Shown: positions 12,612 to 17,666, counted from the stretch's first letter. The stretch: 64,000 nucleotides of DNA from Acutalibacteraceae bacterium (GCA_045630405.1 JAZQTC010000022.1:53673-117672), one strand, 5' to 3'. Notes: generated by a model from the letters alone, not told the origin. A program made the numbers and translations.

Positions 12612-12654
12612 AAAAAAACGGCTTACACGGGAATAAAACCCACATAAGCCGTTT
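12612..12654 (-). terminator. Intrinsic terminator closing the SCP2/aminotransferase/transketolase operon
   Basis: Minus strand AAACGGCTTA...TAAGCCGTTT followed by a run of Ts. Confidence 0.75.
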
Positions 12655-12668
12655 ATTTTGTTATTCGC

Positions 12669-13475
12669 TTATCTTGCGTAGTCGCCAACCATCAGCATAT
12701 AATTACCGATCTGTGCACCGAATTCGGGTGCACCGTCCATGATAAGCTTGCTGTCCTTTGTGAACTCAAGCATATCTGCGGTACCCATAAGGATGCCCAG
12801 TGCGCTGTCGAGACAGTCAAATCTCATTGTGAAGAAAGGAAGAGCGCGCTTGTAAACGCCTCTGCCTGCCTTTGACTTACCTGCCTTGATGCGGATGTAA
12901 GCAGAAATGTCGGGGTAACCGTCAACTGCCCAGGCATAAACTCGGTCAGGGCTTGTGAGAGTCCATCTGTGAATCTCTTCGTGACCCTGCTTGTTGAGCG
13001 TGCTGATACCGCTTGAAAGCAGGTAGAAATAGCACTTAACAAGGAGTTTTTTATCCTCTTCAGCTTCGGGAGCCTGTGTTGCGGTAAGCATTGAGGACAT
13101 TTTGAGAAGTGTCATCATAAATGCCGCAAAAACTGCAGGCTTCTTTGCAACGCCCTTCATCTTAGGAAGAGTTGAGGGGCCGATTTTTCCTTTGAAGAAT
13201 GCGTTCATCTGCTCAACACTCTTGAACTCAAGCTCGATGTGAGCATTGTCTGCAACCTTATCTGTGTGGCAGAGCCACTCGCCGCTGTTAACAACGTAGT
13301 GAGTTGCAAACTTTCCGTTGGGAGCGTCGGGGTCTTTTGCGCTGACCTGAATAACCGCATGAGCGTGCTCAAATTTCTTTGCAAGCTTGGGGTCATCCAT
13401 AGCAATGGTCTTTACAAGAGGCAGAACAGCACAAAGGAAAATTTTATTGGTAAGAATGTCTTCTCTTGAAGGCAT
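12669..13475 (-). CDS. Hypothetical protein with two SCP2 (sterol carrier protein 2)-like domains
   Basis: ELEFKSVEQMNAFFKG and TMRFDCLDSALGILMGTADMLEFTKDSKLIMDG resemble the SCP2 beta-helix-G...G.l.i.G pattern. Confidence 0.55.
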   Translation of the reverse strand: MPSREDILTNKIFLCAVLPLVKTIAMDDPKLAKKFEHAHAVIQVSAKDPDAPNGKFATHYVVNSGEWLCHTDKVADNAHIELEFKSVEQMNAFFKGKIGPSTLPKMKGVAKKPAVFAAFMMTLLKMSSMLTATQAPEAEEDKKLLVKCYFYLLSSGISTLNKQGHEEIHRWTLTSPDRVYAWAVDGYPDISAYIRIKAGKSKAGRGVYKRALPFFTMRFDCLDSALGILMGTADMLEFTKDSKLIMDGAPEFGAQIGNYMLMVGDYAR

Positions 13476-13513
13476 TTAAATCATTCCTTTCGCAATTTTA
13501 TCGGGATACTTTT

Positions 13514-13620
13514 CGCAACGAGCGAGAAAATAAAATAAATCTCGGAATTTGAGATTAGTTTCGCTTTCGCAGTGAGGGCCGCGTATTTCTATACGCAACT
13601 GAACGAGAAAGTGAAAATAA
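13514..13620. repeat. Imperfect direct repeat with short hairpins in the 151-bp intercistronic gap
   Basis: cgcaacgagcgagaaaataaaataa (13514-13538) vs cgcaactgaacgagaaagtgaaaataa (13594-13620); hairpins aatctc/gagatt and gcgtat/atacgc between them. Confidence 0.5.
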
Positions 13621-13626
13621 CTCAAA

Positions 13627-14637
13627 TTATGCTTCGTCATCCCAGTCGTCGTCGAGTTCGAAGTCCTTACCCATAACTTCACGAACAGCGTCAATGATAC
13701 CGTTCTGGTCGATGCCGAGAGTTGACATAATGTCCTCGTGGAGACCGATGGGTGCGAACTTATCCTGAATACCGAGCTGCTTGAATGCGCAACCCTTACC
13801 TGCCTCACCGATAACCTCTGCAACCCCTGAGCCGAGACCGCCGATAACGTTGTGGTCTTCTGCAGTGATGATTCTTCTGGTTTCCATAACAGCCTTTACG
13901 ATAGCTTCCTTATCGATGGGCTTGATTGTGTGCATATTGAGAACTCTTACCTTGAGACCGTCGTTTGTTTCAAGGAACTTTGCAGCCTGATATGCCTGGA
14001 AAACACATGAACCGCAAGCGATGATTGTGATATCTGAACCTTCGTTGATTGTAACAGCCTTACCAACTTCGAAGCCGTAGTCTGTGGTATCGTAAAGAAC
14101 ACGGTCAAAGCCTCTGTTGATACGGATGTAGTAAGGTCCGAAGTTATCGTATGCAGCGTGAACTGCGTTGTAAGTTTCAAGACCGTCTGCAGGGCAGATA
14201 ACTGTCAGGTTGGGGATTGAACGTGCAACTGCCATATCGCAGATAGCGTGGTGAGTTGAACCTGCCTGACCGAATGATGTGCCTGCGTGAGTAGCAATGA
14301 TTTTTGCGTTAACGTTCTGGTAGCAGATGTCTGTGTGAAGCTGGTCAGCACTTCTGAGAGAAGCAAAAACTGAGAATGTTGAGAGGAAAGGCACAAGACC
14401 TGCTCTTGCCATACCTGCAGCCATACCGAACATATTCTGCTCTGCAATACCTACGTTGAAGTATCTGTCGGGGAACTTGTCGCCGAACATACCGATTTTT
14501 GTTGATTTACCAAGGTCAGCTGTGAGAGCAACAACCTCGGGATGCTTTTCGCCAAGCTCGCAAAGAGCCTTACCGTAAATTTCAGCGGTGGAGAAAGCTG
14601 TTGATTCAGTTGCTGTATAGGTTAATCCGCCTGCCAT
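13627..14637 (-). CDS. Split transketolase, C-terminal (pyrimidine-binding + C-domain) subunit, atypical acceptor site
   Basis: TADLGKST, VGIAEQN, THAGTSFGQAGSTHH, YIRINRG, AEDHNVIGGLG. Confidence 0.92.
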   Translation of the reverse strand: MAGGLTYTATESTAFSTAEIYGKALCELGEKHPEVVALTADLGKSTKIGMFGDKFPDRYFNVGIAEQNMFGMAAGMARAGLVPFLSTFSVFASLRSADQLHTDICYQNVNAKIIATHAGTSFGQAGSTHHAICDMAVARSIPNLTVICPADGLETYNAVHAAYDNFGPYYIRINRGFDRVLYDTTDYGFEVGKAVTINEGSDITIIACGSCVFQAYQAAKFLETNDGLKVRVLNMHTIKPIDKEAIVKAVMETRRIITAEDHNVIGGLGSGVAEVIGEAGKGCAFKQLGIQDKFAPIGLHEDIMSTLGIDQNGIIDAVREVMGKDFELDDDWDDEA

Positions 14638-14639
14638 AA

Positions 14640-15509
14640 TCAGATGCCCTCCTTTTCTGCGCGAGCAACGCGTTTTGCATAGTATTTTTCAAGGCTTTCT
14701 TTTGCCTGTTCGTATTTCTCATCGTTGAGAGCGCCGTAGTGCCACTTGTAGTCGCCTTCCATGTAATCAACGCCTGCACCCTTAACTGTGTTAGCGATAA
14801 TCATAACGGGAGCGCCCTTATTTTCAAGAGCAAAATCAATAGCATCTGCAAGTTCGCTGAAGTTGTGGCCGTCAACTTCCTTAACGATGAAGCCGAATGA
14901 ACGCCACTTATCTGCGAAGGGTTCAAGAGCCATAACTTCTTCTGTGGGGCCGTCAATCATGCACTGGTTGCGGTCAACAAATGAAATGAGGTTATCAGCC
15001 TTGAAGTGAGCAGCTGACATTGCTGCTTCCCAGTTTGAACCTTCGTCGCATTCGCCGTCACCGAGGATACAATATGTCTTGTAATCCTTGCCGAGTACCT
15101 TTGCTGCAAGAGCAGTACCGAGAGCGATTGAAAGGCCGTGACCGAGTGAACCTGTTGAAGCGTCAACACCCTTAACCTTGTTTGAGTCAAGGTGGATACC
15201 CATTGTTGAGTTGCTGAGGTTAAACGTCTTGAGCTTTTCCTTATCGTCAAAGCCAACGTGGCAAACAAGGCTTGCAAGAGCAACGCCTGAGTGACCCTTA
15301 CTGAGGATGAAGCGGTCTCTGTCCTCCCACTGGGGGTTTGCAACGTCGTATTTCATGTACTTGTAATAGAGAATGGTGAGCATATCCATAACGCTCATAC
15401 CGCCGCCGATGTGAGCACTGCCTGCCCAGAAAGTTGTGTCAAGGCAAAGCTTACGCAGCTCGTGAGCCTGCTTTTCAAGCTCAAGCCATTCCTGCTTGGT
15501 TAATGCCAT
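14640..15509 (-). CDS. Split transketolase, N-terminal ThDP-binding subunit
   Basis: SAHIGG, RDRFILSKGH, STGSLGHG, GDGECDEG...N ThDP motif, KWHYG. Confidence 0.92.
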   Translation of the reverse strand: MALTKQEWLELEKQAHELRKLCLDTTFWAGSAHIGGGMSVMDMLTILYYKYMKYDVANPQWEDRDRFILSKGHSGVALASLVCHVGFDDKEKLKTFNLSNSTMGIHLDSNKVKGVDASTGSLGHGLSIALGTALAAKVLGKDYKTYCILGDGECDEGSNWEAAMSAAHFKADNLISFVDRNQCMIDGPTEEVMALEPFADKWRSFGFIVKEVDGHNFSELADAIDFALENKGAPVMIIANTVKGAGVDYMEGDYKWHYGALNDEKYEQAKESLEKYYAKRVARAEKEGI

Positions 15510-15566
15510 AGAGAATTCCTCCTTTTAATATCTGTAAGCGACATTTCGCTTTGGTTCCGAAAATTA

Positions 15567-16829
15567 TCAGCCAAGTTCGGGATGATTCTTGCGAAGAGTG
15601 TTGAATGCGTCTTCAGCAACGTCGATTGTGAACTTGATATCTTCATCTGAAAGTGATGCATTGATGAAGTGATTGTGGTGGTTTGTCATATATACGCCTC
15701 TCTTGACGATTTCAGCAATCCACTCCTGATGAAGCATAAGTGAATCGTCATCCTTAAGCATAAGGTAGAAGAGTGCGGGTTCGCCTGTAACGTTAAGGTT
15801 GAAGCCGTTATTTGCAGCAGCAGCCTTGAGACCGTCGCAAAGCATTGTGCCCTTTTCAAGACAAATCCTGGGAAGGTCGATTTCCTTCATCTTGTTGATA
15901 CAAGCAATTGCAGCCGCAAAGGGAACTGCGCTCATCCAGTAGCTGCCTGTGTAAGTAAGACCGCTGATTGCGCCCTTAAGCCATTCCTTACCGCAAAGTG
16001 CTGAAACATTCCAGCCGTTTGCAAGTGCTTTACAGAAGCAGATAAGGTCAGCTTCAATGCCGTAGAAATGGTCTGAACCTGCAAGATCAAGTCTGAAACC
16101 GCAACGAACGTCGTCGATGATAAGAACGATGCCCTTTTCTGTGCAAAGGTTACGTACCTTCTGCCAATAGCCTTCAGCAGGAAGAACGTTATCAAGGAAA
16201 TTGCCGTGCATATAAGGTGTTGAGATAAATGCAGCGATTTCGCCCTCGTTCTCTTCAACAACTTTCTTGAGACCTTCAAAGTCGTTCCAATCAACGTAAA
16301 GGTTGTTTGCAACGTCCTCGGGAAGAACACCGGGATAGTCAATCTTCTGGCACCAGGGAGCAACACCGTGGTAGTAGCCCTTAACGAAGATAATCTTCTT
16401 CTTGTGAGTTGCTGCTCTTGCAGTCATGATAGCAGCAGTTGTTGTGTCACCGCCGTTCTTTGCAAAGAAAGCCCAGTCTGCCGATGCAACGGTGTCAACC
16501 ATAAGCTCTGCAAACTCAATAATCTTTGTTGAAGGTGCGGTAACGCAGTTTTCAATCTTCATCTGCTCCATAACAGCCTTGTCAACGTCGGGGTCATTGT
16601 AACCGAGTACGTTGGGGCCGTATGCGCACATATAGTCGATATATCTGTTTCCGTCAACGTCCCAGAAGTAGCTGCCCTCTGCTCTCTGGCTGAAAAGAGG
16701 ATAAGCTGAAACGGGGATGCAGCAGCCCTCTGCAGGACCCTGATGGCCGTAAAGACCTGAGGGAATAACTTTTGCAGCTCTCTGGAAGAGTTCTGCACTC
16801 TTTGCGTGTGTGTTGATTTTCATGCTCAT
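15567..16829 (-). CDS. Class III PLP aminotransferase, FumI/GSA-aminomutase-like
   Basis: VIPSGLYGH, YIDYMCAYGPNVLGY, ADWAFFAKNGGD, YHG, IIDDVRCGFR, FCKALANG (PLP Lys), TGSYW. Confidence 0.9.
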   Translation of the reverse strand: MSMKINTHAKSAELFQRAAKVIPSGLYGHQGPAEGCCIPVSAYPLFSQRAEGSYFWDVDGNRYIDYMCAYGPNVLGYNDPDVDKAVMEQMKIENCVTAPSTKIIEFAELMVDTVASADWAFFAKNGGDTTTAAIMTARAATHKKKIIFVKGYYHGVAPWCQKIDYPGVLPEDVANNLYVDWNDFEGLKKVVEENEGEIAAFISTPYMHGNFLDNVLPAEGYWQKVRNLCTEKGIVLIIDDVRCGFRLDLAGSDHFYGIEADLICFCKALANGWNVSALCGKEWLKGAISGLTYTGSYWMSAVPFAAAIACINKMKEIDLPRICLEKGTMLCDGLKAAAANNGFNLNVTGEPALFYLMLKDDDSLMLHQEWIAEIVKRGVYMTNHHNHFINASLSDEDIKFTIDVAEDAFNTLRKNHPELG

Positions 16830-16841
16830 TTCTCTTCCTCC

Positions 16842-17600
16842 TTATGCAAGATACAGAGCAACTCTGTCAAGAATTCTGTTAAGGTTGTCAATCATTGAAA
16901 TCATACCCTTCATAACGATATCGCCTGTACCTACGCAGGCAACAGCGTTGACCTTGCCGTCAAAGAGGGCTCTTGCAAGCTCGATGCTTGAGAATTCCAT
17001 GATTGCTCTGGGTGATTCGCTGGGCTTCTTGATTCCGAGAAGTCTGTGGTTTTTGATTCTTACTGTTGTTGAGGTGCAATCCTTGATGCTGATTGAAATA
17101 TCACCGTCAACCATATATTTTGCGGAATGTTTGCCGATTTCATCATTGTTACCGATCTGTGCAATAGCAACAGTAATGGTATTGAGCATAAGCAACGTGC
17201 TGATGCGGAAGAAATCAGGATCTTCAAGGTCGGCAGGATCGGGTCTCATATACTTTGTGAGAAGATCTGTGAGCTTTGTGAAGTCGTTAAGCAGGAACTT
17301 AACGTGGATAAGACCCTTTGAGGGGATGGGTGTTGTTGTTCCGTCGATAAGTCCGTTGAACTTTTCGCAGGAGCTGAAGGGAAGCTTTACGTCGCACTTT
17401 GTGCAACCCTGCTCCATTCTGCACTTGCCGTTTGCAAATGTGATGGTTGCCTTGGGGCCGCCCTTTACGTCAAAGCCGATTGAAATGGGCTTTTTGTTGG
17501 TGAGGATACTGCCTGCCTCGGGAGCCAGCTCGCAGAGGTTTTCAAGAGTACCCAGAACGCCGTAAAGATTGATATACGCCAATGTTTTCTGATCAATCAT
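16842..17600 (-). CDS. Hypothetical protein with two SCP2-like domains
   Basis: ATITFANGKCRMEQG..KCDVKLPFSSCEKFNGLIDG and PRAIMEFSSIELARALFDGKVNAVACVGTGDIVMKG. Confidence 0.6.
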   Translation of the reverse strand: MIDQKTLAYINLYGVLGTLENLCELAPEAGSILTNKKPISIGFDVKGGPKATITFANGKCRMEQGCTKCDVKLPFSSCEKFNGLIDGTTTPIPSKGLIHVKFLLNDFTKLTDLLTKYMRPDPADLEDPDFFRISTLLMLNTITVAIAQIGNNDEIGKHSAKYMVDGDISISIKDCTSTTVRIKNHRLLGIKKPSESPRAIMEFSSIELARALFDGKVNAVACVGTGDIVMKGMISMIDNLNRILDRVALYLA

Positions 17601-17637: not shown

Positions 17638-17666
17638 ATTTTATCAAAATAATTATAACTTGTCAA
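17638..17666 (-). promoter_or_regulatory. Near-consensus sigma-A promoter of the five-gene operon
   Basis: Minus strand TTGACA-17 bp-TAAAAT, followed by AAGGAGG RBS. Confidence 0.75.

Follow-up and report, generated by a model that had tools for sequence, protein, structure and literature searches.

The window, a 64,000-nucleotide stretch of the genome of an Acutalibacteraceae bacterium (GCA_045630405.1 JAZQTC010000022.1:53673-117672), includes five genes arranged head to tail on the minus strand in the order A, AT, TktN, TktC and B (Table 1). The first and the last of these, A and B, encode proteins predicted to consist of two sterol carrier protein 2 (SCP2)-like modules each, and they enclose the genes of an aminotransferase (AT) and of the two subunits of a split transketolase (TktN and TktC). 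Pfam and NCBIfam assigned names to the three enzyme genes. The consecutive gaps between the five genes are 12, 57, 2 and 151 nt. A near-consensus promoter of A is located just past the terminator (17742-17719) of the preceding gene, which encodes a 5'-methylthioadenosine/S-adenosylhomocysteine (MTA/SAH) nucleosidase, and a ribosome-binding site, AAAGGAGG, is present in the sequence ahead of A. Because the promoter and the terminators bracket exactly the five genes, these look like one transcription unit, hereafter called the cassette.

Table 1. Features of the cassette and its surroundings, with positions counted from the first nucleotide of the window.
Feature	Position	Strand	Description
Promoter-like site	17638-17666	-	TTGACA, 17 nt, TG-TAAAAT; 11/12 match; upstream of gene A
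Gene A	16842-17600	-	252 aa, tandem-SCP2 protein; presumed partner the aminotransferase
A N module, ~residues 1-122	17235-17600	-	
Motif segment KLPFSSCEKFNGLIDG	17340-17387	-	A residues 72-87; strand 4 and helix D, N module
GTTTPIPSKG loop	17313-17342	-	A residues 87-96, N module; P-I-P-x-K-G core
A C module, ~residues 123-252	16845-17234	-	
Motif segment IMEFSSIELARALFDG	16956-17003	-	A residues 200-215; C module
AT	15567-16829	-	Class-III, FumI-like aminotransferase, 420 aa; start 12 nt past the A stop
TktN	14640-15509	-	Split transketolase, N-terminal (thiamine diphosphate-binding) subunit, 289 aa
TktC	13627-14637	-	Split transketolase, C-terminal (Pyr and C domain) subunit, 336 aa
TktC-B spacer	13476-13626	-	151 nt; long hairpin, -36.5 kcal/mol, z -2.5
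Gene B	12669-13475	-	268 aa, tandem-SCP2 protein; presumed partner the transketolase
B N module, ~residues 1-135	13071-13475	-	
Motif segment ELEFKSVEQMNAFFKG	13188-13235	-	B residues 81-96
B C module, ~residues 136-268	12672-13070	-	
Motif segment TMRFDCLDSALGILMG	12783-12830	-	B residues 216-231
Intrinsic terminator-like hairpin	12616-12654	-	16-pair stem and T run; 15 nt past the B stop; operon end

An earlier note on this DNA had described A and B as two divergent paralogues, each built of two SCP2-like modules, and had quoted four segments sharing the motif [LM].F.S.E....[FL].G. Both open reading frames and all four segments are present (Table 1). The motif as typed is one dot short and matched none of the four segments. 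With five dots it matched two, and the looser form [LM].F.[SC].[ED].....[FLI].G matched all four. In the six-frame translation of the 64-kb window (~128,000 residues) the loose form had exactly four matches, all within A and B. The beta strands expected ahead of the motifs were found in the AlphaFold2 models, in which four strands precede each motif, and both C-terminal modules include a strand 5 of the anticipated G.I.M.G type (GDIVMKG in A and KLIMDG in B). Also the claim that the proteins lack transmembrane segments and signal peptides agreed with the sequences: neither has a clear transmembrane segment (maximum Kyte-Doolittle mean over 19 residues 1.46 in A and 1.67 in B, the peak of B falling in a confidently modeled amphipathic first helix), and neither begins with a signal-peptide-like N-terminus.

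Profile-profile alignment placed the four motif segments at homologous positions, in strand 4 and helix D of the SCP2 fold. For these comparisons the A family was represented by a profile of 49 diverse sequences with 27-65% identity to the window protein. The N- and C-terminal halves of A matched each other (hhalign 98.4%, E 7e-15), as did the N-terminal halves of A and B (93%) and their C-terminal halves (96.7%). Aligned over their full length (242 columns), A and B were recognized as distant paralogues (hhalign 98.0%, E 2.7e-13), as had been proposed. The paralogy became clear only when the diverse A alignment was used, the BLASTP match between A and B being marginal (E 0.004) and hhalign with shallow profiles giving 54%. 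When run as a query, the A-family hidden Markov model also detected B in the window's genome (E 3.5e-10), along with B genes in two further genomes. The two halves of B showed no direct profile signal with each other (0.3%), and a duplication within B is suggested because both halves match A modules and because of the structural model.

The AlphaFold2 models of A (predicted local distance difference test, pLDDT, 85.4; predicted template modeling score, pTM, 0.84) and B (pLDDT 90.9, pTM 0.88) both repeat the SCP2 order twice: helices, four strands, helix D, strand 5 and a long C-terminal helix. Together with the hhalign results, the models uphold the prediction that each protein is a tandem of two SCP2-like modules. 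Foldseek comparison with the PDB, a check which the earlier note had named, likewise favored an SCP2-like fold for both proteins. For both models it found only SCP2-fold structures at significant E-values (target TM 0.5-0.7), namely mammalian, insect, yeast and archaeal SCP2 (including AF1534), the SCP-2L domain of MFE-2, UbiJ, Thermus TT1886 and the C-terminal region of alkylsulfatases. Sequence profiles gave a similar picture for the A family, of which 30 of the 49 diverse members matched PF02036 at E <0.01 (best E 4.5e-11) and one member matched Pfam Alkyl_sulf_C, and the A profile matched rabbit SCP2 in the PDB (E 0.001). Searched against the PDB as single sequences, A and B had no informative match, and NCBIfam included nothing for either protein. 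B is linked to the A family by the hhalign match of 98%. By their modeled fold, A and B belong to the SCP2 superfamily.

The P-I-P-x-K-G core of the loop in the N module of A (Table 1) ranks with the best-conserved parts of the A family and is kept down to 27% identity. The only low-confidence stretch of the A model, residues 83-96 (pLDDT <50), spans this loop, and B carries a stretch resembling it, G.I.P.TLP.M.G. The loop of A is a candidate contact, docking or lid element.

AT has the class-III pyridoxal-phosphate (PLP) fold (PF00202 at E 4e-42) and keeps the catalytic, Schiff-base lysine in CFCKALANG, aligned with the corresponding lysine of FumI. FumI is also its nearest solved relative (PDB 6hbs; 295 bits, E 7e-87, 37% identity over 400 residues), whereas the best glutamate-1-semialdehyde aminomutase reached 167 bits and AT fell far below the cut-offs of all NCBIfam HemL models. 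Both AT and FumI have G(L/M)YGH where HemL has NSPVRAF. FumI of Sphingopyxis sp. MTA144 is an aminopentol (hydrolyzed fumonisin B1) aminotransferase, which takes off the 2-amino group of hydrolyzed fumonisin B1, a sphinganine analogue, with pyruvate as the acceptor (PMC3136697). It deaminates 2-amino-12,16-dimethylicosane-3,5,10,14,15-pentol with a Km of 1.1 µM and was characterized as a purified single enzyme, with bovine serum albumin in the assay (PMC3136697). The substrate of FumI is a sphinganine-like long-chain 2-amino-3-ol, and by likeness that of AT may be of the same type; the sequence of AT points to action on a hydrophobic amine.

The structure nearest to TktN and TktC was the split transketolase of Carboxydothermus (E 1e-78 and 3e-74, respectively). 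The motif binding thiamine diphosphate (ThDP) and metal and the catalytic histidines (H26, H66, H100, H261 and H473 in Escherichia coli) are all kept in the cassette transketolase, which includes the motifs SAHIGG, SKGH, GIHL, GDGECDEG, KWHYG and GSTHH. The differences from the E. coli enzyme lie in the substrate pocket. R358 of E. coli corresponds to Ala18 of TktC, a position with A or S in 58 orthologues and A or G in distant cassettes, and the pair E468-D469 corresponds to Gln124-Ala125 of TktC (GQAG). R91 is replaced by Asn97 of TktN, and thus also the salt-bridge partner of D469 is lost. The changes of D469 to Ala125 and of R91 to Asn97 are invariant in 58 and 72 orthologues, respectively, and the pocket changes (R358, E468-D469 and R91) are kept in cassettes of 46-67% identity. 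The D469-R91 pair, which reads the 2-hydroxyl of the acceptor, is hence absent from the cassette transketolase, and the full sugar-phosphate set (R358, S385, H461 and R520) is incomplete because R358 is lost.

In the E. coli enzyme, substitutions at R358, S385, D469 and R520 raise the activity with aromatic aldehydes, and D469T was the step that led to non-polar acceptors, both aliphatic and aromatic (PMC7661550, PMC5073344). The pocket changes of the cassette enzyme point to a hydrophobic substrate. The other split transketolase of the same genome (contig 35, L081; 280 + 315 aa) keeps R91, R358 and E468-D469. The genome also includes a DXS of 622 aa (contig 62, L083). The cassette transketolase is thus an extra, specialized paralogue.

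Clustered at 90% identity, the A family included 1940 clusters and the B family 1043, and every source name seen for either family was 'hypothetical protein', as the earlier note had expected. At 50% identity, 589 A-family clusters emerged from an exhaustive profile search; with few exceptions they were ~250 aa long, and the tandem architecture is thus the rule. A gene-family scan of metagenomes with a single protein as the query gave one locus. The cassette is common: the scan of species-representative genomes confirmed 543 loci, of which 80 were fetched for the comparison of gene order. One carrier is an isolate, 'Acutalibacteraceae bacterium SVS042' (L078). The fetched loci were from Acutalibacteraceae, Oscillospiraceae and unclassified Clostridia and derived from human, ruminant, horse and digester samples. 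In all 80, as far as the contigs extend, the genes follow the order A-AT-TktN-TktC-B. The flanking genes differ among these loci and no sixth conserved gene was found beside the cassette, synteny of MtnN, RmuC and BglX being limited to close relatives. The A family was present in 39 of the 165 good-quality genomes sampled from the window's family (about a quarter) and in 10 of the 401 genomes sampled across the phylum. The cassette is accessory, not core.

In distant genomes the unit was found both intact and divided. The whole cassette is present in G177 and G345, and in G268 the genes A-AT-TktN-TktC are followed by the contig end. In G356, AT-A and TktN-TktC-B form two separate, oppositely oriented operons, and in G294, A-AT is located on one contig and TktN-TktC-B on another, the transketolase carrying the cassette signature. 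In G300, a 6.4-Mb genome listed as 100% complete, the arrangement is permease-A-AT, and no B-family gene was found anywhere in the genome. Also a metagenome contig (L090) has an A gene, with 27% identity, overlapping the AT gene by 4 nt, and no transketolase or B was present within 7 kb of this A-AT pair. Because the unit splits into A-AT and TktN-TktC-B, A pairs with the aminotransferase and B with the transketolase. The association of both proteins with the two enzymes, which the earlier note had drawn from their bracketing position, is thus genetically fixed, as seen both in the conserved gene order and in the distant genomes.

The neighborhoods of the divided units differ. In G300 (L085, G300:C1, 1160-10826), the permease that precedes A-AT in the same orientation is an APC-family amino-acid permease, and A-AT adjoins an AraC-type regulator and a gene set of GH1, SDR and GH2. 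In G356 (L084, G356:C3, 5694-7339), a Fur-family regulator and a flavin-reductase/rubredoxin/rubrerythrin fusion gene are located between the two divergent operons. In L090 (5843-9051), a gene of the endonuclease/exonuclease/phosphatase family directly precedes A; sphingomyelinases belong to this superfamily.

The spacer between TktC and B is made from an 82-nt unit, present in five tandem copies in a related locus (L006 12094-12521), and its length varies from ~40 to ~700 nt across the loci. A dispersed repeat was considered and rejected, as the sequence is unique in the genome. An Rfam search of the operon, the spacer included, matched no known RNA. The spacer, with its hairpin (Table 1), may act within the operon in processing, stability or attenuation and so set the ratio of B to the enzymes.

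Taken together, A and B would be accessory proteins dissolved in the cytoplasm and built as pseudo-dimers of two SCP2 modules, and each would serve one enzyme of a two-step path for a water-insoluble amine or ketol. The carrier would draw the hydrophobic tail of the substrate from a membrane or micelle into its pocket and then offer the polar head to its enzyme, in the manner thought for UbiJ and for the SCP2 domains of SCPx/MFE-2 and the alkylsulfatases. AT would interconvert a long-chain, sphingoid-base-like 2-amino-1,3-diol and a 1,3-dihydroxy-2-ketone, and the transketolase would make or break the C2-C3 bond of the ketol, yielding or using a fatty aldehyde and a C2 ketol unit passed to or from a second substrate. 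The path from AT to the transketolase is chemically coherent, because the 2-amino-1,3-diol yields the 1,3-dihydroxy-2-ketone which transketolase uses as the donor.

The earlier note had suggested that A and B deliver an insoluble substrate. This idea stood as far as the enzymes point to a hydrophobic substrate, AT being FumI-like and R358, D469 and R91 being lost from the transketolase; which substrate it is we infer from these likenesses, as we do the cargo binding, the hand-over and the direction. That A and B carry cargo for their enzymes at all seems probable. That the cargo handed over is a sphingoid-like long-chain amino-diol, ketol or aldehyde, as argued here by analogy, is plausible, with a chance falling a little below even. 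The catabolic or detoxifying direction is slightly favored over biosynthesis, which might run in the manner of AniP/AniQ, because of the patchy accessory distribution, the permease and AraC gene beside one A-AT pair and the catabolic role of the nearest relative. A whole sphingoid-base route lacking serine palmitoyltransferase and sphingosine-1-phosphate lyase, and formed instead by a FumI-like aminotransferase and a lipid-adapted transketolase, each with its own double-SCP2 chaperone, is a tentative proposal. Equally tentatively, gut and rumen Clostridia might by this route degrade, detoxify or make host, dietary and fungal bases, including fumonisin-type toxins.

Several observations weigh against this explanation of the cassette. 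The A protein of the window scores 18.4 bits to Pfam SCP2 when the gathering score is 21.3, with the match in the C-terminal half, and B has no Pfam match. The SCP2 nature of the N modules depends on the internal hhalign match and the order of the secondary structures, and the alignments used for AlphaFold2 were shallow, with 16 and 19 sequences at 70-94% identity. Of the four sugar-phosphate ligands of transketolase, the equivalents of S385, H461 and R520 are kept, and a sugar phosphate may therefore still be at least one of the substrates. A 3S ketol is required by ordinary transketolases, and D-erythro-sphinganine would give 3R, as reasoned from the stereochemistry. The cassette lacks any gene that would pin the pathway down, be it for an aldehyde dehydrogenase or reductase, a kinase, a ceramidase or a transporter, and the APC permease beside A-AT in G300 would equally suit a soluble amine.

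Some of these points are shared by the view that A and B are not carriers, the SCP2 fold acting as a structural or regulatory subunit (for oligomerization, as a lid or as a stabilizer) of enzymes for soluble amino-polyols or amino-sugars. SCP2-like domains also serve as auxiliary or dimer contacts, and both MycE and the dimerization-plus-SCP2 region of alkylsulfatases were among the Foldseek results. The most conserved motif of A, PIPxKG, sits in a loop outside the pocket, an APC-type permease stands ahead of A-AT in G300, and the three transketolase phosphate ligands are kept. However, ordinary sugar-phosphate acceptors fit poorly with the loss of R358, D469 and R91, the kinship of AT with FumI points to a lipid amine, and the four full SCP2 modules are kept down to 27% identity, which leaves this explanation improbable. 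It is doubtful, too, that the same carrier architecture holds another cargo, such as a steroid or bile-acid side-chain ketol, a polyketide or alkyl-amine product or an isoprenoid intermediate. To judge from the Foldseek targets, the ligands of SCP2 folds include sterols, quinone precursors, acyl chains and detergents, and the cassette itself fixes no substrate. DesAB uses a split transketolase on steroid ketols in gut Clostridia, and AniP and AniQ are a natural pair of transketolase and aminotransferase in secondary metabolism (PMC11387542). Against another cargo, the nearest characterized relative of AT acts on an acyclic 2-amino-3-ol lipid, and the related loci show no conserved neighbor of the cassette for a hydroxysteroid dehydrogenase, transporter, polyketide synthase, non-ribosomal peptide synthetase or tailoring enzyme. 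We also know of no amino-steroid substrate. The steroid-desmolase reading was ranked lower, as des-type neighbors were not found beside the cassette.

The earlier note had also suggested that A and B possibly form a heterodimer or a scaffold delivering the insoluble substrate. In most genomes the two paralogues do bracket the enzymes in one operon, which would suit an obligate heterodimer or heterotetramer acting as one scaffold. An obligate A-B heterodimer is nevertheless unlikely, since A-AT occurs without any B or cassette transketolase in the complete genome G300 and in L090. Nor does a single shared scaffold seem likely, as A-AT and TktN-TktC-B are apart, in different operons in G356 and on different contigs in G294, and the carriers thus look enzyme-specific. 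Moreover, each protein alone is already a confident two-module pseudo-dimer (pTM 0.84 and 0.88). As an account of the whole cassette, the obligate assembly is highly improbable, and the heterodimer or scaffold was rejected as the main model because of A-AT without B and the split operons.

If A and B are carriers of this kind, a duplicated tandem-SCP2 protein with each copy fixed to one soluble enzyme would offer a clean model for the access of enzymes to membrane-bound substrates. With a sphingoid-like substrate, gut anaerobes would have a new means of clearing or using host and dietary lipids that are bioactive and antimicrobial, possibly including fumonisin-type mycotoxins in ruminants. The cassette would also provide a natural transketolase in which the pocket changes made by protein engineers for non-polar aldehydes are already present, and a matched aminotransferase for the synthesis of amino-diols.

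A literature search for this gene set found no description of it, and for the tandem, paired and enzyme-specific SCP2 arrangement no earlier description was found in the literature searched. As a rule, SCP2 domains occur singly, either as a fused part of a lipid enzyme or in loose association with one. SCP2 and SCP-2L domains (1c44, 1ikt, SCPx) share with A and B the alpha/beta fold (Foldseek probability 1.0), with the same strand 4, helix D and 'G..P....G.l.i.G' signature, and in SCPx and MFE-2 the SCP2 domain likewise accompanies enzymes acting on lipids. However, A and B fuse two modules in each stand-alone protein, occur as two paralogues and have only 12-20% identity with these domains, and their partners are a PLP aminotransferase and a ThDP transketolase instead of beta-oxidation enzymes. 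The C-terminal region of the alkylsulfatases SdsA1, YjcS and Pisa1 gave the best Foldseek E-values for A, covering ~210 columns of a helical region and an alkyl-recruiting SCP2-like domain. There the domain is fused to a hydrolase of the metallo-beta-lactamase fold, and the root-mean-square deviation of the long alignments, 16-19 Å, shows that the arrangement differs.

For the enzymes, DesAB and AniP/AniQ are the closest parallels in chemistry. DesAB, the steroid-17,20-desmolase of Clostridium scindens, was compared by its description: it is a split transketolase homologue that cleaves a 1,3-dihydroxy-2-ketone on a hydrophobic skeleton, and thus an existing split transketolase acting on a lipid ketol (PMC3735941, PMC12876203). 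The des operon differs in having a 20-hydroxysteroid dehydrogenase and a transporter, neither of which is a conserved neighbor of the cassette in the related loci, and reports of the des operon mention neither aminotransferase nor SCP2 genes. In anisomycin biosynthesis, AniP and AniQ combine a natural transketolase-type C-C step with transamination of the ketol to an amino-alcohol (PMC11387542). AniP is, however, a fused enzyme of 603 aa, uses aromatic keto-acid donors and belongs to a Streptomyces biosynthetic cluster without carriers. Engineered transketolase-transaminase cascades pair the same two steps synthetically. For the working mode of A and B the best analogy is UbiJ (6h6n/6h6o/6h6p), which was among the top Foldseek matches. 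This stand-alone bacterial protein of the SCP2 type is presumed to retain hydrophobic intermediates on behalf of soluble enzymes. It consists of one SCP2 domain and a tail and serves many Ubi enzymes, with neither a paralogue pair nor a single-enzyme partner, whereas A and B are double-module proteins each paired with one enzyme.

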